A DNA stretch of 64,000 nucleotides, taken from positions 1 to 64,000 of the forward strand of contig OY771506.1 of NCBI GenBank assembly GCA_963674705.1. The letters run 5' to 3'. Source of the DNA: Phycisphaeraceae bacterium (GTDB taxonomy: Bacteria; Planctomycetota; Phycisphaerae; Phycisphaerales; Phycisphaeraceae). Positions 11,308 through 28,439 of this stretch are shown here, piece after piece (within the stretch, counting starts at the first letter, position 1; each line of letters begins with the position of its first letter). A program made the position numbers and the translations under genes. The notes beneath the pieces are model-generated. The model ran no database searches. It saw nothing but the letters and a program-made list of their open reading frames with translations, and had not been told where the DNA came from.

Positions 11308-11526
11308 CTCTCCAAGCCTCGCCATTATGTCGCATTTGGTGGGTGCAATTAGTCAGAATAATTATACCCTCAAATCCCCCAAAAACAACGAAATTCAGGC
11401 CTTTAAACCGGATATTCCCCAATCAGAATCCCCCCAAACCAGCCCCCGAATCCGCCCCCCCAAGCCGCTCGCGGCTTAGCGCGGTCTTCCACACCCCCAA
11501 CCACCCCAATGCACACCCACCCCCGC

Positions 11527-11591
11527 GGCGAGGGCCGCTTCAGCGGCCCGGCGTCCCCCCATGTTCAATCGTCAAAGTTCAAGGTTCAATC
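11527..11591 (+). repeat. Repeat family E: 65-bp hairpin + heptamer tract
   Basis: Identical copy at 12732-12796; diverged reverse copy at 17587-17651. Confidence 0.9.
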
Positions 11592-11661
11592 ATCAATCGC
11601 TAATAAATCTTCACATCCCCCGCCAGACTGATCAGCGATTAACACTTAACGATTACAAATC

Positions 11662-12555
11662 CTAAACCCCGCCCCGCCTCATCAATCCAACCACACCAAG
11701 CAGCAACAATCCCACACTCCCCGGCTCGGGAACCACGCCCCCCGCAACCGCAGGCGTCCCCGCGTTCCAGTTGTTCAACACAACATCAAGATCCGCCAAC
11801 CCCACGAACCCATCGCCCGTCGCGTCGCCCAGCATCAAATCCCCCGCTGCCACATTCTGGTTCCAGTTCACAAGCACGATGTCAAGGTCACTTAAACCTA
11901 CAAACCCGTCACCATCCAGATCACCCGGTATCGCCGGCTCAACGACCGCCGCACCCTCAAACGTGATCGCCGTTAACGCAAAGTCGGCATACAAACTCAT
12001 CTTGTACGTGTCGAACCCTTTAAGTAGCGCCGTACTCCCCCAAGGGTTCGGCGACTCATCGTAAGAAAACGACACCCACGCATAACCCGACACATCAAAC
12101 GCAACCGGGTCGTTAAGCCCATCTTCCCCGTCAATCAAAGGCATGATCTCAACCGCCCCCCCAGCCCCGGCCGTATTCGCCAAAAGCATTATCGTGATCG
12201 AGGTCAGATCAAACACATCCCCATCCACACGCGTAATCTCGATCCTCGCCTTATGATCCGTCACCCCCGCCGGCGGCGTCGACACCGCCTGGGCATGAAT
12301 CCCATCAGGCCACGTCACCAACTCCTGCCGCCCAATGATCTGCCCCGTCCCGCCGGTAAACAACTTATCCAGCGTATACGTGAACTGATACCCGTTACTG
12401 CTGATCGTATCCGACGTCACATCAGACGAAACCAGCGTCGCCACCTGCGAACTAGAAAAAAACGCAGTCGTCGCAGCATGAACCGATTGCACCCCCAACA
12501 ACACAACCACGATCGCGATAGATAATTTAGGTCCCACCCAATATCCCTTATCCAT
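11662..12555 (-). CDS. Secreted PEP-CTERM protein with dockerin-like domain; N-terminal domain unknown
   Basis: Signal peptide; GDLDGDGFVGLSDLD/GDATGDGFVGLADLD; VPEP-TM-RRGG. Confidence 0.8.
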   Translation of the reverse strand: MDKGYWVGPKLSIAIVVVLLGVQSVHAATTAFFSSSQVATLVSSDVTSDTISSNGYQFTYTLDKLFTGGTGQIIGRQELVTWPDGIHAQAVSTPPAGVTDHKARIEITRVDGDVFDLTSITIMLLANTAGAGGAVEIMPLIDGEDGLNDPVAFDVSGYAWVSFSYDESPNPWGSTALLKGFDTYKMSLYADFALTAITFEGAAVVEPAIPGDLDGDGFVGLSDLDIVLVNWNQNVAAGDLMLGDATGDGFVGLADLDVVLNNWNAGTPAVAGGVVPEPGSVGLLLLGVVGLMRRGGV

Positions 12556-13087
12556 GTTTGAATTGCCGCCCAAACAAACCCATCCGGGTCAACACAACCC
12601 TGCCCACATAATACCCCCCCATCCTCCCCCCCGACAAGACCCACAAAAATATCCCCCACACACACTAAACCAAACACCCGCTCCCCCCACACCCCCAACC
12701 CCACCCAAGGTACTGCCCACCCCACCCCCCAGGCGAGGGCCGCTTCAGCGGCCCGGCGTCCCCCCATGTTCAATCGTCAAAGTTCAAGGTTCAATCTCAA
12801 ATCTCCAATCATTAATCTCAAACCCAAAAACCCAACCCCGCATTCAAACCAACAATTAACGATCAGCCATCAAAGCCCCTGAATCATCAACCAATACAAC
12901 CCACCACACCAATACACAATCCCCCTCTCCCCCCAGAAGAGGGCCGGGGTGAGGGCCGAATGCAACCAACGCCAACACGCAAACAAATCGTCTCACCCAC
13001 ACAACAAGCACAACCACCCTCGAATACCGAGCGCTTATCACATGACTAACTGCCTACAGTAAATCCGCGAGAGATGCGCTTCGCTGA

Positions 13088-13122
13088 GGGTGCCACACTT
13101 TGACCCGAAGGGCAAAGTGTGC
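13088..13122 (+). repeat. REP family A copy 1 (left flank of RAYT)
   Basis: GGGTGC-CACACTTTG-A-CCC-GAA-GGG-CAAAGTGTG-C. Confidence 0.9.
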
Positions 13123-13134
13123 GAGATTCACCCC

Positions 13135-13671
13135 ATGTCAACTCTCCGGCGGAAACTCAAGCGATACGAAACACCAAACCATGCCCGCTATCTCACCTTC
13201 TCATGCTACCGAAGATTGCCGCTTTTCAAAAATGACAAAATCAAACAAGTATTCGTCGACCAACTCGACCTGACCCGTCAGCGTCTTGACTTCATACTCT
13301 ACGCATGGGTCATCATGCCCGAACACGTCCACCTGCTTCTCATGCCGAACCTCGAATCCGCAACCGTCCGGCAAATCCTGCACGCATTGAAGCGCCCCGT
13401 CTCTGAAAACATCCTCGCCCGCTGGCGTCGGCTCGACGCCGGCATCCTCACCAAACTCACCGACACCCAAAACAATCCCCACTTCTGGCAACCCGGCGGC
13501 GGGTACGACCGGAACATCTTCACCACTGATGAACTGCTGGAAAAGATCCAATACATCCACACCAACCCGGTCCGCCGCGGCCTTGTCAAACACGAAACCG
13601 ATTGGCCCTGGTCAAGCGCGCGGTGGTATGATCGCAAAAAAGGTTTACCGATGGACACATTACCCCTGTAA
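13135..13671 (+). CDS. REP-associated tyrosine transposase (RAYT; HUH Y1 family)
   Basis: LTFSC, WVIMPEHVHLL (HUH), FWQPGGGYDRNI, YIHTNPV (catalytic Tyr) and WPWSS motifs; flanked directly by inverted REP hairpins. Confidence 0.9.
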   Translation: MSTLRRKLKRYETPNHARYLTFSCYRRLPLFKNDKIKQVFVDQLDLTRQRLDFILYAWVIMPEHVHLLLMPNLESATVRQILHALKRPVSENILARWRRLDAGILTKLTDTQNNPHFWQPGGGYDRNIFTTDELLEKIQYIHTNPVRRGLVKHETDWPWSSARWYDRKKGLPMDTLPL

Positions 13672-13676
13672 ACCCA

Positions 13677-13713
13677 GCACACTTTGCCGCTGCGCGGTCA
13701 AAGTGTGGCACCC
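13677..13713 (-). repeat. REP family A copy 2 (right flank of RAYT)
   Basis: Reverse complement reads GGGTGC-CACACTTTG-A-CCGC-GCA-GCGG-CAAAGTGTG-C. Confidence 0.9.
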
Positions 13714-13752
13714 AACTTGCGACAAATAGATATTTGAATGTAAGGTTGGCAC

Positions 13753-14247
13753 ATGAAATATAATTCAAAACATCGCCACGCACTGCATGTCATGTTGTAT
13801 GTGTGCACGTTGCTACTCCATATATCGCTTACGGGATGTGATCGGTCACCAGCCACACCGACCACCATGGTCAATGATTTTGGGACATACAGTTTTCCCG
13901 ATAATTCGCAGCTTGAGCTATACAAAAAGCCTCAAAGCAGCATCGTGCTATGCAAGCTTACATCTGCTTCAGGGGATCTATTATTTGAAGATGATCTGGG
14001 CGGAAACTTCTCCCGCTGGTATATCGTGCGAGGCAATGACAACTCTTTCTGGGTCTACAGCGGCGATATAGGCCTCTGGGTCTGGAAAAACGCTGAGAAC
14101 GGCTATAGCAAAACGATGATTGAGACTCTCAAGGATCCTTTGGTTTTTGATATGCCGTATGAGTACATCTATCATTTACCATCTCGAAATCAAGACGAAA
14201 TCGATGAATTCCGTAAGGCGTATCAAAACAGTCTGGATAAGCAGTGA
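13753..14247 (+). CDS. AT-rich hypothetical lipoprotein
   Basis: Basic N-terminus, hydrophobic stretch and LTGC lipobox; visibly AT-richer than neighbours; no recognised domain. Confidence 0.65.
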   Translation: MKYNSKHRHALHVMLYVCTLLLHISLTGCDRSPATPTTMVNDFGTYSFPDNSQLELYKKPQSSIVLCKLTSASGDLLFEDDLGGNFSRWYIVRGNDNSFWVYSGDIGLWVWKNAENGYSKTMIETLKDPLVFDMPYEYIYHLPSRNQDEIDEFRKAYQNSLDKQ

Positions 14248-14265
14248 TCTCACGATCCATGCTTC

Positions 14266-14435
14266 GGGTGCCACACTTTGATCGCGAAGCGACAAAGTGT
14301 GCTGCTTTGATTAAACACAACAAGTAGCAACATACCTAGTAAATAGCCCCACGCGGAAGCGTGGGGTTCAGATGACTTGATATATACGCGGTATAAGAAA
14401 ACCCTCACACTTTGCCCTGCGGGTCAAAGTGTGGC
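14266..14435. repeat. REP family A doublet (copy 3 at 14266-14302 +, copy 4 at 14406-14435 -) enclosing a CCCCACGC-GGAA-GCGTGGGG palindrome
   Basis: Two inverted family A hairpins; the copy 4 tag is degenerate. Confidence 0.85.
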
Positions 14436-14468
14436 GTTCCGAAAAGTTACCGTTGGTTTCCGTAAAAC

Positions 14469-15740
14469 CTAAATCGTCCCCGTCCGCTGCGCGCGTGTCC
14501 CGGGGCCTAGCGGGCCTCGGGCTTGTTGTTCCGGACTTGGAGCGGCGCCAGGTGACTGGGGGTTGCCGACGAGGTCGGCGTTGGTTTTGAAGCGTTCCAA
14601 AGCCTTGAGCAGTTGCTCGACCTGTTGCGGTGGGGGCATGTTCAGGAGCCGGCGGCGCAGGGCGGTCATGGTGTTCAGCTCGTGCTTGGCCATGAGTTTG
14701 TCTTCCTTGCGCGTCCCGCTGGCGGCCAGATCGATCGCGGGGAACAGGCGTTGCTCGGCGATCTTCCGATCGAGGATCAATTCCATGTTGCCCGTGCCTT
14801 TGAACTCTTCGAAGATGACCTGGTCGCCGCGGCTGCCGGTGTCGACCAGCGCGGTGGCGATGATGGTCAGCGAGCCGCCTTCTTCAAACCGACGTGCGGC
14901 GCCGAAGATCTGTTTGGGGATCGCCATCGCGCCGGCGTCCAGGCCGCCGGACAACGTGCGGCCGGTGCTCTGCATGTTCGGCGCGGTGTTGAACGCTCGG
15001 CCCAGGCGCGTCAGCGAGTCCAGCACGATCACCACATCCTTACCCATCTCCGCCCAACGCTTGCATCGCTCGATCGCGATCATCGCAAGCGCGCAGTGAC
15101 GCTCGGGTGTGTGGTCGTTGGAACTCGCCCAGACGGTGCAAGGCACGTTGCGACGGAAGTCCGTGACTTCTTCAGGCCTCTCATCGATCAACAGCGCGAT
15201 CGTAATCACGTCCGGATGATTCTTCTCGCACGCAAAGGCGATGTTCTGAAGCAGCGTGGTCTTGCCTGCTTTAGGCGGGCTGACGATCATGCCGCGCTGC
15301 CCGTAACCGATCGGGCAGAACAGGTCGATCAAGCGACAGGCCGGCGGACAGTCCGGATATTCAAGCGTCATGCGAGGCTCGGGGTCGACCGTCGTCAGGT
15401 CTTCGAACTTGCGTGCCTGCTTGAGAAACTCTTCGGGGTCCATGCCTTCAACCGACAGCACCTTGTTGACGCGCAGCGCCTGCGGATCGATCGCGTCGAC
15501 CTTCTGCTTCTTGGACTTCTGCTTCTTACGGCTCTGCGGCGGTTGGTTGTGCTGCGTGCTGCCACCCATAGGTTTACCCAGCTCGACCTCAATCAAGAGG
15601 CCGGAGCGCAGGTCGTAGCGTTCGATGTCCTTCGCGAGGACAACGGGGTCGCGTGGGTGGGAGGTGTAGGTCTGATCTAGCTGGCGTAATCTGCCGTCAG
15701 CCCGTCTGCCGATCTCGAGGATCCCGGTCGCGGTTTGCAT
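14469..15740 (-). CDS. rho: Transcription termination factor Rho (short N-terminus, atypical RNA-binding domain)
   Basis: PIGYGQRGMIVSPPKAGKT, LLIDERPEEVTD, DSLTRLGRA, FEEFKGTGNME and SGTRKE motifs. Confidence 0.93.
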   Translation of the reverse strand: MQTATGILEIGRRADGRLRQLDQTYTSHPRDPVVLAKDIERYDLRSGLLIEVELGKPMGGSTQHNQPPQSRKKQKSKKQKVDAIDPQALRVNKVLSVEGMDPEEFLKQARKFEDLTTVDPEPRMTLEYPDCPPACRLIDLFCPIGYGQRGMIVSPPKAGKTTLLQNIAFACEKNHPDVITIALLIDERPEEVTDFRRNVPCTVWASSNDHTPERHCALAMIAIERCKRWAEMGKDVVIVLDSLTRLGRAFNTAPNMQSTGRTLSGGLDAGAMAIPKQIFGAARRFEEGGSLTIIATALVDTGSRGDQVIFEEFKGTGNMELILDRKIAEQRLFPAIDLAASGTRKEDKLMAKHELNTMTALRRRLLNMPPPQQVEQLLKALERFKTNADLVGNPQSPGAAPSPEQQARGPLGPGTRAQRTGTI

Positions 15741-15844
15741 AAATAGCCACTCGTGTTGGCGTGCGTTTAACAGCAGCGCCGATGCGAAAAGTTAGACGTC
15801 AGGCCGAGTTACGGCCCCGGGGCTGCGTAGCCCTGTTGATGAAT

Positions 15845-16105
15845 CCGGTTGGAAGCGTGTAGGCCGCGGGAGCACAAGCTGCCGCATTGGCAACACGCGA
15901 AGTCAAAAAGCCTGGGAGTATCCGTATCGTTGGCTAGGCCTTCTCCTACATCCTGATACGAGATAACGCGGCGGGGCGAAGTCCGGTTGGCGAGCCAACC
16001 CTGAGTATTAACGAGTATCCGCCGAGTACCTTCCCGGGTGCCCCCCTACTTTGGCTGGTTCGTTGGCCGTCGAATCCGACCTACACGTCCAGCCCTCCAA
16101 CCCGG
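15845..16105 (-). ncRNA. Candidate structured RNA / rho 5' leader
   Basis: Terminal segments 16078-16105 and 15845-15865 are complementary; minus-strand TATAAT at 16114-16119 lies just upstream. Confidence 0.4.
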
Positions 16106-16113
16106 TTGCAAGC

Positions 16114-16119
16114 ATTATA
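16114..16119 (-). promoter_or_regulatory. Sigma70-like -10 box upstream of the rho leader
   Basis: Perfect TATAAT on the minus strand; no clear -35 box. Confidence 0.4.
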
Positions 16120-16388
16120 CGCTAGACGCTTACGACGCGTCGGCCTGCCTGTCCGGGCGATCGATCGAGGCGCCGCGGGGCATCCTGGACCGAGTGGGAG
16201 ATGCCCCTGTTTTACCCCTTTCGGCAGTTTTGGGCAAGCGGCACAGTCCAAGCCGTACAAACCGCTGGCAATTGTTCTCACAAGCCCCTACAGACCGATA
16301 ACTTACCATAAGATATGAACATGGCCCCTCACAGGCCCGCAAAAGCTTATCCCGGATCATTTGATCCGATTAGGAGCTCATTCCAGAC

Positions 16389-17456
16389 ATGTCCGACAAC
16401 CTGCTGCTTTTGATTTATTGCGTCTTGATCCTCATTGCCTCGCTGCTGGGCGGGTTTATCCCGCTGTTCGTCAGGCTGACCCATCGGCGGATGCAACTGG
16501 CGATCAGCCTGGTCGCGGGGTTCATGCTGGGGGTCGCGGTCTTGCACCTGATGCCGCACGCACTGATGACGATCTCACCGCTGCTGGGGGCCAAGTGGAT
16601 GATCGTCGGCATCCTGGCGATGTTCTTCCTCGAGCGCTTCTTTTGCTTCCATCATCATGATGCGCCGGAAGACAACCCGCCGGTCGAAAGTCAAATCGAC
16701 GAAAAGTTATCCACCACTGAACAGGCGCACAGTACCGTCGCGATTGATGCCCATGCGCACGATCACGCGCACAACCACGCGCACGATCACGACCACCATG
16801 ACCACGATGATGAACACCATGTTCACGGCCACGAGCACCGCCTGGGCTGGGGCGGCGCGGCGGTCGGTCTGACCATCCACAGCGTGATCGCGGGCGTCGC
16901 GCTGGCGGCGGCGATGAGTTCGCAGACGATGGCGGAGGTGCATGGTTCAACCTGGCTGGCGGGGATCGCGGTGTTCCTGGTGATCTTCCTGCATAAGCCG
17001 TTCGACTCGCTGACGCTTGGCACACTGATGGCCGCGGGCGGCTGGCCTGTCGCATCACGTCACCTGGTCAACGGCCTGTTCGCGCTGGCGGTGCCCGCGG
17101 GCGCTTTGCTGTTTAAACTCGGTTTGGCAAGCGTTGACTTGAACGAAAGCCACGCGGTCGGCGCAGCGGTTGCGTTCAGCGCGGGTGTGTTTCTTGTGAT
17201 TTCGCTGAGTGATCTGTTGCCTGAGTTACAGTTCCATCATCACGATCGGTTGGCGCTTTCTTTTGCGCTGGTATTGGGTATCGCGATGGCGTGGGCGGTG
17301 AGTCACTTCGAAGCAAAGACACATCATCATGAACACGGCGACATGCACGATCACGGTGCGGCGGTGCAGGTGGATGAACATGGGCATGAAGTGCATGCGG
17401 ATGAACATGGGGATGTGCATGATGAACACGATCATGAAACCCATGAGCATGAGTGA
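16389..17456 (+). CDS. ZIP-family divalent metal (Zn) transporter with His-rich loop and tail
   Basis: GFMLGVAVLHLMPHA, IHSVIAG, FLHKPFD and DLLPEL motifs; multiple TM segments. Confidence 0.85.
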   Translation: MSDNLLLLIYCVLILIASLLGGFIPLFVRLTHRRMQLAISLVAGFMLGVAVLHLMPHALMTISPLLGAKWMIVGILAMFFLERFFCFHHHDAPEDNPPVESQIDEKLSTTEQAHSTVAIDAHAHDHAHNHAHDHDHHDHDDEHHVHGHEHRLGWGGAAVGLTIHSVIAGVALAAAMSSQTMAEVHGSTWLAGIAVFLVIFLHKPFDSLTLGTLMAAGGWPVASRHLVNGLFALAVPAGALLFKLGLASVDLNESHAVGAAVAFSAGVFLVISLSDLLPELQFHHHDRLALSFALVLGIAMAWAVSHFEAKTHHHEHGDMHDHGAAVQVDEHGHEVHADEHGDVHDEHDHETHEHE

Positions 17457-17711
17457 GGGGATTGGGGATGGGGGATGGGGGATTTTTAATCGTTGATTGT
17501 TAATCGCTAATTTAAAAGGCGGGGGGCGGTATACACGTGCTGCACATTAGCGATTAACGATTAGAGATTCGCGATTGAATACTCCAGATTGAACATTGGA
17601 CATTGAAGATTGAACATGGGGATACGCCGGGCTGCTGAAGCAGCCCTCGCCGCGCCCGCGTTGTGGCGGTCGGATGACGGTTGATTGAATATCTGCCCTT
17701 CCCTGCCTACT

Positions 17712-19271
17712 ATGTGCCGCTTGGATGCGGAAACTTTACAACCTGAATCGGCCGATTCGGCTCCCGTCAACGACGAGGTGCGGACGGTGTCGTTTGTGAG
17801 TCTGGGGTGTCCGAAGAACCTGGTGGACTCGGAGAAGATGCTGGGTCAGCTTGCGGAGGACGGGCTGGTGCCTGTGCCGGACGGGGCGGATGCGGACGCG
17901 GTGGTGGTCAATACGTGCGGGTTCCTGGAAGCATCAAAAGACGAATCCATGCAGGAGATCGCGCTGGCGGCCGAGCTCAAGCGTCAGGGCAAGCTCAAAC
18001 GGCTGATCGTCGCGGGCTGCCTGGTGCAGCGGCATCGGGCGAAGATGCTCGAGTGGTGCCCGGACATCGATGCACTCATCGGCGTGTTCGACCGCGACCG
18101 GATCACGCAGGCGGTGCGTGGCGGAAAGCCTAAACAGAAAGATGTCAGCGTCGACCTGCCGATCTATTCGAGCATCGCGACCAACGCCACGCTCGCCAAG
18201 CAGGCGCGCGGGATCGAAACCAACGGTTACTACGAAGACGACGGCGGCCGACTGCGTCTGACCCCCCGCCACTACGCGTACCTTCGTATGAGTGAAGGCT
18301 GCAACCAGAACTGCACGTTCTGCACGATCCCCTCCATCCGTGGCAAGATGCGGTCCAAGCCGATGGATGCGTTCTTGAATGAAGCGCGCGAGTTATTCGC
18401 GGATGGCGCGTTCGAGTTGAACCTGATCGGTCAGGACACGACGAGTTATGGCCTCGACATCGGTTACGACAAACCGGGCGAGGGGCTTGTCGGTCTGCTT
18501 CGACAGATCAACGATCTGTCTACCGAGCACGGCGGCGCATGGGTGCGTTTGATGTATGCGTACCCGAGCAAGTTTACGGACGAGATGATCGACGCGATCG
18601 CGACACTGCCCAACATCGTGAAGTACATCGATATGCCGCTGCAGCATATTAACGATCGTGTGCTGGATCGGATGCGTCGATATACGAGCAGAAAACTGAT
18701 CGAAACGTTGTTAGGCAAGCTACGCGACCGCGTGCCGGGCATCACGCTGCGTACGACGTTTATCACGGGGTTCCCCGGCGAAACGGATGAAGAGCACAAC
18801 GAACTGGTCGAGTTCATCCGCGACTTCGGCTTCGATAATCTCGGCGTGTTCCCCTACTCCCCCGAACCTGGCACGCCCGCCGGCACACTGCACGCCGATG
18901 GCGACGCGGTGCCTAACGAGGTGATTCAAGAACGTCTTGATGAACTGATGACGGTGCAGCAGGACCTTGTGTTTAACCGCAACGCGGATCTGTCGGAAGA
19001 GCAGCCGGAAGTGAATGTGCTGATCGATGAAGTCACCGACAGTGTTGTTGAGGCGACGGAAGGCGTCACCGAAGGCGGCCGTTTATACCAGGGCCGCACC
19101 TCGGGCCAGGCCCCGCAGGTCGACGCCGTCACCTTCGTCCAATCCAACAACGACCTGACCCCCGGCGAACTGGTCCGCTGCAAGATCATCGCCTACGACG
19201 ATTACGATTTGATTGCGGCCCCGGTGGATGATTTGAATAAGCGGGTGGGGTTGCGGGTGATTGGTGGTTAG
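17712..19271 (+). CDS. rimO: Ribosomal protein S12 methylthiotransferase
   Basis: SLGCPKNLVDSE, NTCGF, radical SAM CNQNCTFC, MYAYP and TRAM-like C-terminus. Confidence 0.93.
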   Translation: MCRLDAETLQPESADSAPVNDEVRTVSFVSLGCPKNLVDSEKMLGQLAEDGLVPVPDGADADAVVVNTCGFLEASKDESMQEIALAAELKRQGKLKRLIVAGCLVQRHRAKMLEWCPDIDALIGVFDRDRITQAVRGGKPKQKDVSVDLPIYSSIATNATLAKQARGIETNGYYEDDGGRLRLTPRHYAYLRMSEGCNQNCTFCTIPSIRGKMRSKPMDAFLNEARELFADGAFELNLIGQDTTSYGLDIGYDKPGEGLVGLLRQINDLSTEHGGAWVRLMYAYPSKFTDEMIDAIATLPNIVKYIDMPLQHINDRVLDRMRRYTSRKLIETLLGKLRDRVPGITLRTTFITGFPGETDEEHNELVEFIRDFGFDNLGVFPYSPEPGTPAGTLHADGDAVPNEVIQERLDELMTVQQDLVFNRNADLSEEQPEVNVLIDEVTDSVVEATEGVTEGGRLYQGRTSGQAPQVDAVTFVQSNNDLTPGELVRCKIIAYDDYDLIAAPVDDLNKRVGLRVIGG

Positions 19272-19566
19272 TTTTGATGTGTAATCGCTGATCGTTAATC
19301 GCTGATTGGGGGAAGCGGATCTTGGTTTCACATTACACATTAACGATAAGCGTTTACACATTCATTGCTCGCGTTTAGCGGCGGATCGCAGATCCGCGCG
19401 TTCGATTTTTCGTATCGCGTTATGAAGACGCAAAGCCGAGGCGATCTACGATCGTCTGCAAAACGGGGAGTCAGATGCGGGTAGGACGTCACACATTGAT
19501 GACACAACCGCAATGCGTGCGGGGCTTGCTGCCGTTATTTGTATAATGTTGATGCAAGGCATCCGA

Positions 19567-19602
19567 CACACTTTGTCACTGTGTGATCAAAGTATGGCAC
19601 CC
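19567..19602 (-). repeat. REP family A copy 5
   Basis: Reverse complement reads GGGTGC-CATACTTTG-A-TCAC-ACA-GTGA-CAAAGTGTG. Confidence 0.85.
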
Positions 19603-19640
19603 GGATATTGTCCACATCTGATTAAGGATATGATATTGTT

Positions 19641-20279
19641 ATGATTAAGCGAACTGGAACCACGCTACTTGTGTTGATCCTTTATTTAACTATGACGGCA
19701 TGTTCTACCGCCACAGATGACGAAAGGGACATCAATAGAGTATTTATCCGACTGAATGATGCAATGCTATCGGGCAATGATCATGATTTAGTAACAACGC
19801 TTGATAAGTATACAAACAAAGTTACCGAAGATACATTAAAATCCGTTTATTATGATGGCAAAACAGATATTCTTGAAAGAGAATTAATTCAAAGTCTGGC
19901 AATTTTAGAGGTACGTGCCAACATGTTGCGCGACAATATTAGTCACGCATCTATTTGCCTTGTTCTAAATCATATGACATTAGATGAATTATATCTCAAT
20001 AAGAATAAGTATAAACTTGAGAATTTGAATGTTCAGGGAGATGTTGCTGTAGCCGGTATACAGGTCTACGGGAATAGGCGCGAAGTGCGTTTCATCAGAG
20101 AGATGGGAGCATGGAAGTTTAGTTTGAAAGAGCAGCATGATATCTTAGACCAAGTACTCGAAAACGATTTGAATGCATCAGGCCTTGAGCGCGATAGGTG
20201 GCTGCTAGATTATTTGACAATGATTGGATTAAGAAGCGTCTTGTCGGAGAACATTTTTGATCCCGTAAAAAGCCAGTAG
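19641..20279 (+). CDS. AT-rich hypothetical lipoprotein
   Basis: MIKR-hydrophobic-MTAC lipobox; AAGGA upstream; strongly AT-rich. Confidence 0.7.
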   Translation: MIKRTGTTLLVLILYLTMTACSTATDDERDINRVFIRLNDAMLSGNDHDLVTTLDKYTNKVTEDTLKSVYYDGKTDILERELIQSLAILEVRANMLRDNISHASICLVLNHMTLDELYLNKNKYKLENLNVQGDVAVAGIQVYGNRREVRFIREMGAWKFSLKEQHDILDQVLENDLNASGLERDRWLLDYLTMIGLRSVLSENIFDPVKSQ

Positions 20280-20345
20280 CATGGGTTTAATTCCGGTATG
20301 GGGTGGGGTCGCGAAACCCGTTCCGAGCCTTTCAGGTCGTTAGCC

Positions 20346-20379
20346 GGGTGCCAGCCTTTGACCCGCAGGGCAAAGGCGG
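20346..20379 (+). repeat. REP family A copy 6
   Basis: GGGTGC-CAGCCTTTG-A-CCC-GCA-GGG-CAAAGGCGG, with compensatory changes in the outer stem. Confidence 0.8.
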
Positions 20380-20798
20380 TTGACACGAACTTTAATCCCA
20401 ATACATAAAACGGAAGCAGAAACGGGGGGCCGACACCGTTTAGGCGTGTGCTTGCCGAATCGGTTCGTCTTGGGACGTAATGTCAATCGGGGAGACCTGC
20501 GGTCAGACAGTACGGCGGAGTCGGGAGACCCGCGCCGAGCGCGGGGGTGGCTTTGATGTGTAATCGCTGATCGTTAATCGCTGATTGGGGGGAGGGGGAA
20601 GCGGGACCGGGTTTCAGATTACAGATTCGCGATTAAAGATTAGCGATTACACATCCGCGATTTTGGATTCGCGATTGAACATTTCCCATTGAAGATTGAA
20701 GAAGGGGCAGCGCTAAGCCGCAAGCGGCTTTTGGGGGGATAGAGCTGGTCCCCAAATCTTGGACAGCCGGTTGGCCTGAATAAGGTGGGCCAACGGGT

Positions 20799-21680
20799 TT
20801 ATGCCGCGGCCAGCGGCGGTCCGGTTATAGGTTTTCCATCATACGCTTCGTCCGGCGTCCGTCCAGCGAGTGTCGAGTGCGGACGCTCGGTGTTGTAGAA
20901 CCGCAGCCATTCATTGATCCCGGCGCGAGCTTCGCTGCCTCTGTCCCACGCGTGCAGGTACACGCATTCGTACTTCAGGCTCCGCCACAGACGTTCGATG
21001 AACACGTTGTCCATCCATCGGCCTTTGCCGTCCATCGATACCTTCGCGCCCGCGTTCTTCACCGCTTCGGTCCATTCCAGGCCGGTGAACTGGCTGCCCT
21101 GATCGGTGTTGATGATCTGCGGCGGGCCGTGCTTGCTCAGCGCTTCTTCCAACGCCTCGACGCAGAATGACGCTTCCATCGTGTTGCTCAATCGCCAGGC
21201 CAGCACCTTCCTGCTGTGCCAGTCCATGACCGCAACGAGGTACAAAAAGCCGCGTCGCATCGGGATGTATGTGATGTCGGCGCACCACACATGACCCGGC
21301 TGATCAATCTTCAGATTCCGCAGCAGGTACGGATACACCTTGTTTTCAAGGCATTTGACGCTGGTCTTCGGGGCCTGGTAGATCGGCGTCAAACCCATCT
21401 GACGCATCAATCGACGCACACGCTTGCGGCCGACGTTGTAGCCAAGCCGACGCAACCAACGCATCATCTGCCGGCTGCCGTAGAACGGCGTGCACAGGAA
21501 CTGTCGGTCGATCAGACGCATCAGCTTCAGGTTCAACGGGCTCTCGCCTTTGCCTGAAAAGTAAAACGACGATCGGCTGATCGACACCAGCCCACACTGA
21601 CGCACGATGCTCAGCTCGGGGTGCTTGGGTTCGACCATGTCGCAGCGGCGGCCGTGGCTCAAAGCCCCAACCCTTTTTTT
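20799..21680 (-). CDS. IS3 OrfB DDE transposase domain (probably expressed by -1 frameshift from OrfA)
   Basis: WCADITY, NTDQGSQF, DNVFIERLWRSLKYE and YNTERPHS motifs; minus-strand TTTTTAAAAAAAG at 21673-21685. Confidence 0.9.
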   Translation of the reverse strand, partial: KKRVGALSHGRRCDMVEPKHPELSIVRQCGLVSISRSSFYFSGKGESPLNLKLMRLIDRQFLCTPFYGSRQMMRWLRRLGYNVGRKRVRRLMRQMGLTPIYQAPKTSVKCLENKVYPYLLRNLKIDQPGHVWCADITYIPMRRGFLYLVAVMDWHSRKVLAWRLSNTMEASFCVEALEEALSKHGPPQIINTDQGSQFTGLEWTEAVKNAGAKVSMDGKGRWMDNVFIERLWRSLKYECVYLHAWDRGSEARAGINEWLRFYNTERPHSTLAGRTPDEAYDGKPITGPPLAAA

Positions 21681-21940
21681 AAAAAGTCCTTCTCGATGGT
21701 CAGCTCGCCGATCTTCGCGTGCAGCTCTTTGATCTGCTCGTCGGATGCCTGCGGGTCCTTGCCGCCGCCACGGGCAAAAAGCTGGGCCGCCTCCTGTGCC
21801 AGCAGCTTCTTCCACCCGCCGATCATGTTCGGATGCACGTCGTACTTCTTGGCGATCTCCGCCACCGTCAACTCGCCACGCAGCGCCTCCAGCGCCACCT
21901 TCGCCTTGAATTCAGCCGTAAATCGTCGTCGCTTGCTCAT
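21659..21940 (-). CDS. IS3 OrfA (HTH)
   Basis: RRRFTAEFKAKVALEALRGELTVAEIAKKYDVHPN; ends at an A7G slippery site. Confidence 0.9.
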   Translation of the reverse strand: MSKRRRFTAEFKAKVALEALRGELTVAEIAKKYDVHPNMIGGWKKLLAQEAAQLFARGGGKDPQASDEQIKELHAKIGELTIEKDFLKKGLGL

Positions 21941-22157
21941 CAAGTAAGTCCTTTCAAATCTGCAGACCAGCCCACTTTAACCGGCTGTCCAAGATTTGGG
22001 GACCAGCTCTGATTATCGGACGCGGGGGCAGATTTCTTGGGTTCTGGGGGGTTGTGGGTCTTGGATAATGGGATTGGTGTGCTATTGTTAGGGTGGTGGG
22101 AGTTCGGCTGCGCGTGTCGCGGGCTGGGCCCTGAACAACCAGAGGGACAAGGAGACG

Positions 22158-22898: not shown

Positions 22899-22981
22899 GG
22901 GTGCCATACTTTGACTCCGCAGGAGCAAAGTGTGCTTTGTCACAACACGCTTTGCCGCTGCGCGGTCAAAACGTGGCACCC
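22899..22981. repeat. REP family A doublet (copy 7 at 22899-22935 +, copy 8 at 22946-22981 -)
   Basis: Inverted pair with tags facing outward, between convergent genes. Confidence 0.9.
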
Positions 22982-28357: not shown

Positions 28358-28439
28358 GGGTGCCACATCTTGATCGCGTAGCGACAAGGTGTGCTGCTGC
28401 CCTCACACTTTGCTCCTGCGGAGTCAAAGTGTGGCACCC
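28358..28439. repeat. REP family A doublet (copy 9 at 28358-28394 +, copy 10 at 28404-28439 -)
   Basis: Inverted pair; inner stems TCGC-GTA-GCGA and CTCC-GCA-GGAG. Confidence 0.9.

Follow-up and report, generated by a model that had tools for sequence, protein, structure and literature searches.

The closest described relatives of the locus reported here are the REPtrons, or RAYT-REPIN systems, in which a REP-associated tyrosine transposase (RAYT, or TnpA-REP) of the HUH-Y1 type is flanked by repetitive extragenic palindromes (REPs), hairpins whose short tags point outward. Doublets of such REPs (REPINs) ordinarily move together with short tails (PMC3116915). In vitro, TnpA-REP cleaves single-stranded DNA on either the 5′ or the 3′ side of a REP, and the cut strand is joined to an attacking 3′ end (PMC8266576). 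Beyond RAYTs and their REPINs, an uptake of neighbouring genes by REP units has already been proposed: in the gene sequestration by bacterial interspersed mosaic elements (BIMEs) discussed by Ton-Hoang et al., 2011, distant cleavage would let a REP unit take up whole genes or fragments, with codA-cynR as the cited case, and the one-ended capture by IS91, ISCR and Helitron elements is named in the same article (PMC3333891). Here, we describe a RAYT and its REP family (REP-A) in the first 64 kb (the window; 64,000 nt) of the genome of a Phycisphaeraceae bacterium (contig OY771506.1 of GCA_963674705.1; henceforth G000, a single contig of 5.54 Mb and 56.6% GC). Lone REPs whose tag is immediately preceded by GCC stand at the borders of strain-specific AT-rich DNA. 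Such edges could well be joins made by the RAYT that anchor accessory DNA, a reading that we prefer tentatively, our confidence stopping a little short of halfway.

The RAYT at 13135-13671 retains the EHVHL, WQ and YIHTNP motifs intact, and NF047646, PF01797 and the alignment with 4ER8, the E. coli TnpA-REP, identify the HUH and catalytic tyrosine motifs of a Y1 transposase. By the motif table of Quentin et al. (PMC6006769) it fits subclass 2.6, which corresponds to RAYT group 5 and is described there with atypical structures. The REPs at its ends, 13088(+) and 13713(-), are inverted and belong to a family that recurs in 98 copies in G000; both were detected at 26 of 80 loci homologous to the RAYT locus. 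Each REP folds into a hairpin that leaves the tag unpaired. The tag at its foot reads GGGTGCC, and GTAG or GTGG is missing, which excludes only the GTAG groups because subclass 2.6 has atypical structures. The locus thus shares with RAYT-REPIN systems the HUH-Y1 protein, the tag-outward hairpin flanks and some 33 tailed mobile doublets; it differs from them in its tag, in the placement of the RAYT at different loci in relatives, and in a class of lone, GCC-tagged REPs that abut foreign genes. Judged by record titles, relatives of this RAYT come mostly from Phycisphaerae; in one genome, G009, the RAYT lies at another locus and is followed by an open reading frame (ORF) of 0.49 GC. The RAYT collection of G000 is unusually rich: Y1 transposases were matched 14 times, mostly beside a flanking repeat family of their own, and the RAYT of the window is the sole member of its family among them. 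Many intergenic repeat families and abundant heptamer tandem repeats are also present in G000.

Evidence for a special position of the lone REPs comes from comparison with a close relative, G004 (5.76 Mb, of which 2.23 Mb was used, part targeted at REP sites and part untargeted tiles), which is 94% identical to G000 across aligned DNA. The sequencing runs X1 and X2, from which the window itself may derive, and X3, which shares the insertions of G004, were not counted as independent. Where CC stands directly before the tag of a lone REP, the DNA on the tag side is strain-unique at 15 of 18 sites in G000 and 10 of 16 in G004 (p 7e-8 for G000 alone, for a class defined after the data had been seen and in genomes that are kin). 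The corresponding figures are 6 of 50 and 6 of 52 for doublet halves, and 5 of 16 and 9 of 30 for other lone REPs, a group that takes in 14266/14439 since a ceiling of 90 nt was set for doublets; the counts omit REPs that lie outside aligned G004 DNA. As a comparison, strain-unique DNA adjoins 217 of 1037 open gene ends. Tag-side genes have a GC content of 0.48 as against 0.58, and a lone REP follows the stop of 6 of 227 low-GC genes, compared with 8 of the 4145 remaining genes (p 4e-5); for this count, two REPs that had degenerate partners were reassigned from the lone class to the doublets. Gene and lipobox calls are from custom scripts and contain errors; by this gene caller the first and fifth percentiles of gene GC in G000 are 0.44 and 0.50.

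The edges lie close to the tag: multi-copy and orthologous matches begin at -3 to -1 from it, homology breakpoints fall 2-5 nt from it, and many tag-side genes stop 2-10 nt before it. In one slot, the same REP type adjoins different genes in G000 (3365434) and G004 (468781), both with stops 2 nt before the tag. Most genes adjoining lone REPs are of unknown type, and SUKH-3 immunity, DpnII-type, WG-repeat and NTPase proteins occur among the 23 scanned. Three things are directly observed: the association itself, its location on the tag side, and breakpoints within 2-5 nt of the tag. Whatever the role of the RAYT, the result sets the genomic niche of lone REPs apart from that of doublets. The roughly 33 doublets of G000 are tag-outward, 79-85 nt long and located beside genes of ordinary GC. 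Doublets unique to G000 or G004 carry a tail of 23-29 nt on each side, and the other strain has a near-empty site; in G009 the tails are uniform, at about 26 and 32 nt, and end in TAG. These doublets, and not the gene-carrying cassettes described below, are REPINs in the sense of tag-outward pairs that move as a unit. The features of the window are listed in Table 1.

Table 1. Features of the RAYT locus, the two cassettes and the comparison elements (window coordinates unless marked G000)
Feature	Position	Strand	Details
REP-A, left flank of the RAYT, tag outward	13088..13124	+	
RAYT / TnpA-REP	13135..13671	+	178 aa; PF01797; NF047646 100.6 bits (cut-off 80); PDB 4ER8 E 2.5e-7
REP-A, right flank of the RAYT, doubling as left bracket of cassette 1	13677..13713	-	
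Cargo 1, lipoprotein ORFan	13753..14247	+	164 aa; lipobox LTG-C at C29; GC 0.45
REP-A, left half of long tag-outward doublet	14266..14302	+	
Palindrome of another repeat family, inside the doublet	14345..14369	.	
Degenerate REP-A, right half of the 14266 doublet	14403..14439	-	overlooked in the initial annotation
Host gene, conserved right anchor of slot 1	14469..15740	-	
Host gene, conserved left anchor of slot 2	17685..19271	+	
Lone REP-A, CC directly before tag	19567..19602	-	
Cargo 2, lipoprotein ORFan	19641..20279	+	212 aa; lipobox MTA-C at C21; GC 0.39; identical in G004
Repeat family X (GTAG-type REP), leader plus decayed body	20271..20316	+	leader contains the stop codon of cargo 2
Lone REP, subtype B, GCC before tag	20343..20384	+	
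Family C REP	20419..20441	+	single copy here (empty site)
IS3-type insertion sequence	20748..22011	-	rve and HTH_21 domains; not present at this place in G004
Ordinary tag-outward REP-A doublet (REPIN), comparison class	22899..22981	.	
Ordinary tag-outward REP-A doublet (REPIN), comparison class	28358..28439	.	
X-leader sites	20271; G000 2648905, 3665337, 3701281, 3763297, 4888344		

By analogy with TnpA-REP, we infer that the RAYT could cleave and join DNA at these REPs. Its cut in the REP strand would lie a few bases 5′ of the tag, and that strand would then be joined to a second DNA end. The RAYT would probably stay bound to the REP strand until a 3′ end of other DNA attacks it, in the manner of the published strand-transfer assay. 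A single join of this kind would anchor foreign DNA at one end, leaving the other to be resolved by recombination or a second join. A tag-inward bracket would result from two joins on opposite strands and would therefore be a side product, not a cassette as such. Selection would favour joins in which a complete gene survives, consistent with the stops 2-10 nt before the tag. Five unrelated AT-rich genes take their last two codons and stop (Ser-Lys-stop) from the leader of repeat family X, and the two that were tested are full length against homologues, which also speaks for this reading. A join of the TnpA-REP type leaves the second DNA beside the tag, and the foreign DNA does lie on that side; for this reason RAYT-made joins at GCC are favoured here. 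The data fit two directions alike: a resident REP may have received foreign DNA, or the end of a REP may have been joined into foreign DNA that was already in place.

A similar arrangement, with inward pairs around AT-rich lipoprotein genes, recurs in G116, a genome from another family that carries this RAYT family. It has 40 CC-tagged REPs, with G preceding the CC at 39 of them, and tag-side genes of 0.56 GC compared with a baseline of 0.62. Six neighbouring pairs point inward at a spacing below 1.6 kb (113-1545 nt), and four of the six enclose lipoprotein genes; several direct REP pairs enclose one or two genes, and lipoprotein genes form gene-REP-gene-REP runs. Two paralogous units, each consisting of a tRNA 3′ end, a terminator and a REP, are 86% alike up to 5 nt past the tag and then unrelated. 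At L189, which represents one lineage with G116 contig C135 because REP spacing and RAYT match, the layout of the initial annotation is reproduced exactly: a host gene is followed by REP(-), a spacer of 53 nt, an AT-rich lipoprotein gene with its stop, 4 nt that end in GCC, REP(+) and then the RAYT. The pattern is present in 6 of 401 genomes of the class; a metagenome pattern scan (120 matches, 5 passing the hairpin test) was uninformative. The 3′ end and terminator of a tRNA-Met(CAT) gene of G116 (L419 1282-1359 and L390) recur twice more downstream, each time with a REP. Integration linked to tRNAs was discarded as a general explanation, since it covers at most one G116 locus (1 tRNA, in two overlapping loci of 27 scanned).

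A bolder proposal is that GGGTGCC-type RAYTs of Phycisphaerae are a gene-uptake engine, joining incoming foreign DNA to resident lone REPs at GCC and so building and refreshing integrase-free arrays of lipoprotein, immunity and defence genes; we consider this less likely than not. The initial annotation had suggested that the RAYT may diversify surface lipoproteins. In G000 and G004, lipoproteins are not enriched beside CC-tagged REPs (3 of 19 vs 8 of 77). In G116, script calls give a tag-side lipobox in 12 of 30 genes and in 2 of 20 in 32 kb of other G116 DNA (p 0.026), about 2 of the 12 calls looking false (some 10 remain by eye), and counting all genes of those loci the difference is not significant (24 of 89 vs 2 of 20, p 0.15). 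No tag-side lipoprotein was found among the genes sampled in two further genomes with the RAYT, G051 (0 of 6) and G154 (0 of 5). Nor do these show a GC bias, the tag side being lower in 3 of 7 cases in G051 (77 copies, 8 loci) and 1 of 3 in G154 (5 loci).

The tag-side lipobox count and the lower GC of tag-side genes in G116 speak for joining by the RAYT. The counts in G051 and G154 and the two reservations on the G116 lipoboxes weigh against it, as do the late definition of the CC class, the kinship of the two strains and the following observations. The flanking REPs of the RAYT itself lack GCC, and in G004 no intact copy of this RAYT family was found, yet lone-REP sites are many. The polarity of the CC class alone is not significant (11 to 4, p 0.12). 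Two other repeat families have the same link to strain-unique tag-side DNA in G000 and G004, namely X (7 of 13, 14 of 20) and C (11 of 13, 9 of 12), and the REP classes are not independent because subtype B REPs often sit inside X elements. There is no excess of repeats after strain-specific low-GC genes (21 of 56) over core genes (268 of 753), and in the untargeted tiles the counts are 4 of 18 and 117 of 352. Across the 80 loci of this RAYT family, only 2 of 35 and 2 of 33 flank REPs have low-GC DNA beyond them; the count is 10 of 129 for first neighbours and 3 of 115 for second neighbours (p 0.09). As a side observation, a remnant of the RAYT is present elsewhere in G004, at 468709 (L055), where a REP-A is followed by the first codons of the RAYT and then by another repeat that truncates it.

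The second of the two directions is quite possible in our judgement, if less so than RAYT-made joins: foreign genes would enter a few tolerant intergenic slots by other routes, lone REPs of several families would insert at GCC or AG sites there without cost, and brackets would be two independent insertions. Most foreign genes have no repeat, as expected from such a pile-up, and the slot downstream of 17685-19271 holds at least six repeat families as well as an insertion sequence. The nesting of B REPs within X elements points the same way. A 183-aa lipoprotein gene has a plain stop in G000 and an X-leader stop in G004, and a repeat can therefore join or leave a resident gene. Furthermore, doublets insert after stops: where a REP lies 17-33 nt after a stop, that stop is TAG in 11 of 21 cases, compared with 769 of 4372 genes overall. 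Lone REPs have also been described as decayed REPIN remnants (PMC3116915). Insertion into tolerant slots is not, however, a property of all repeats, since same-REP doublets and families D, E, I, J, K, L and M have strain-unique neighbours at or below background; together with the lack of excess after low-GC strain-specific genes, this also led us to reject the idea that every repeat marks foreign genes. Cases in which a REP is retained together with the flank on its host side, next to a tag side that has changed, would not be expected from later insertion. The polarity of family C, the strongest seen (8 to 0 towards strain-unique DNA, p 0.008), also speaks against it. Family C REPs also flank the Y1 transposase genes at G000 291432-292136 and 4510910-4511539, and a 450-aa transposase inserts into them.

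Alternatively, REPs might be passive short homologies at which host recombination swaps, deletes or inverts neighbouring DNA, the RAYT merely spreading them. In the slot downstream of 17685-19271 (slot 2), G004 has an additional 125-aa AT-rich gene between two direct family C copies, in place of the single copy of G000; direct subtype B copies enclose extra DNA at G004 1484933-1485801; and an 18-kb inversion (G000 2381457-2399314, G004 5207979-5227127) has REP clusters at both ends. Turnover continues in G004, with its lack of a detected intact RAYT of this family. The cassette of cargo 2 is identical in G004 over 19433-20428 (996 nt), past both of its REPs and ending inside other repeats, which makes recombination the likely last move of this cassette; the tract is one of seven perfect tracts of at least 900 nt in 1.8 Mb. 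We nonetheless regard passive homology as improbable for the edges in general: it requires donors in which the gene already stands beside a REP, which pushes the question back, and it leaves the GCC-fixed breakpoints and the low GC of the tag side unexplained. Perfectly identical tracts of 1.3-2.8 kb at G000 1258184, 1843581, 531478 and 628416, between genomes 94% alike, suggest recent recombination as well.

The initial annotation had singled out two cassettes in which inward-pointing REP-A tags bracket one lipoprotein gene, and had proposed that the RAYT may capture or insert single-gene cargo between REPs in integron fashion. Their coordinates, gaps, lipoboxes and low GC are borne out: the tag-to-ATG gap is 39 nt in cassette 1 and 38 nt in cassette 2, and the right REP(+) follows the stop by 18 nt (at 14266) and by 66 nt (at 20346), respectively. 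The two do not have the same architecture, as had been claimed. The left REP of cassette 1, 13713(-), is the right flank of the RAYT and partner of 13088(+), while 14266(+) pairs with 14403-14439(-), so that the cassette is mostly a foreign gene caught between a RAYT flank and half of an ordinary tag-outward doublet, and is no test of joining at GCC. The right REP of cassette 2 is of subtype B, and the 66 nt before it, thought to be almost free of other DNA, hold the family X leader at 20271 in which cargo 2 stops. The left end of cassette 2 is consistent with a GCC join.

At orthologous loci of relatives, both slots can be empty or differently filled. Slot 1, which ends at a host gene that we take to be Rho-like (14469-15740), lacks the RAYT and cargo 1 in G004 and carries a 754-aa AT-rich TPR gene instead; in run X5, the RAYT and cargo 1 occur together at this locus with 63 differences in 1204 nt (about 5% divergence). 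Slot 2 follows a gene that is presumably a RimO-type radical SAM protein (17685-19271), and the insertion sequence within it is, from its rve and HTH_21 domains, presumably of the IS3 family. Among 11 genomes of the genus, cassette 2 was found at the orthologous locus of G004 only, and in five other members slot 2 is empty or differently filled, without these REPs. That slots 1 and 2 of relatives hold other genes lacking the REPs is a further point for later insertion into tolerant slots. Run X5 keeps the REP at 19567-19602; its contig agrees with the window as far as 19604 (2 nt beyond the tag) and then runs on for 318 unaligned letters, which could hold a strongly diverged cargo 2. Joints such as 13121-13677 were rejected as RAYT excisions, being REP doublets from other loci aligned onto the window.

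Genome-wide, only three tag-inward neighbour pairs closer than 2.5 kb exist among the 98 REPs. All three enclose low-GC DNA (0.44, 0.40 and 0.49), which is suggestive, though three pairs are too few alone. Of the proposed gene capture, the link between REPs and foreign genes is supported, by strain-unique DNA on the tag side, by slots that are empty or differently filled in relatives and by the recurrence of the bracketed lipoprotein layout in G116; the integron-style unit is not: inward pairs are rare and cassette 1 is a flank plus a doublet. That a RAYT excises such a pair as a circle and reinserts it elsewhere we consider highly improbable, despite the near-equal gaps, the recurrence in G116 with its runs of lipoprotein genes, and a cargo content (SUKH-3 immunity, restriction, unknown proteins) that resembles cassette arrays. 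The REPs within a pair differ in subtype, inward pairs of G116 also enclose fragments of 113 and 148 nt and a gene remnant, and no cargo was found with its REP pair at a second locus. A REPIN tail of 24-32 nt plus a ribosome site would about account for the tag-to-ATG gap, the tail motif not being clearly visible in either gap of the window.

Integron gene cassettes are likewise single short-leader genes followed closely by a hairpin, arranged in strain-variable runs with ORFan, lipoprotein and immunity content. The present system differs from them: no integron integrase (TIGR02249) exceeded the cut-off in any of 5 genomes, a simple scan found neither RYYYAAC nor GTTRRRY (attC core motifs) on the + strand after either cargo, and no circle or moved cassette appeared in the contigs examined, which drop rare forms. 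The likeness to IS91, ISCR and Helitron elements is that HUH chemistry could move adjacent DNA from one fixed end; the RAYT-leader-like DNA on the non-tag side of G116 lone REPs, and the REP with RAYT first codons at another locus of G004, fit this likeness. The differences are that the protein is a small 178-aa Y1 RAYT, not a rolling-circle transposase with ori and ter ends, and that the REPs are dispersed anchors and not ends of an autonomous element. BIME sequestration concerns neighbouring host DNA (PMC3333891), whereas the DNA here is foreign, strain-variable and joined at a fixed site by the tag. In a literature search that covered few subscription papers, none turned up that ties lone REPs to foreign genes at a fixed site, describes REP-anchored foreign-gene arrays or treats the present REP family.

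An uptake engine, if real, would be the missing benefit to the host that explains the persistence of RAYTs in bacteria. It would also be a second, integrase-free way of gaining single accessory genes. A fixed join site by the tag, with foreign genes there in two families of one class, makes gene sequestration directly testable.

The two cargo proteins are ORFans without mutual similarity, as had been annotated: neither has a Pfam or NCBIfam family at E 0.1, each matches only itself in a search of 5.8 billion proteins, and they do not match each other at E 1e-3. The nearest Atlas clusters of cargo 2 are unnamed lipoproteins (score 0.94); the Atlas match of cargo 1 is weak, with a score of 0.90 and low recognition. 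A plasmid search with a 324-aa cargo returned nothing. Elsewhere in the window, a 105-nt direct repeat (87%; 11516-11620 and 12721-12825) brackets a PEP-CTERM-type gene at 11662-12573, DNA that is absent from the G004 locus, and a ZIP-family transporter encoded at 16389-17456 contains two long His-rich stretches.

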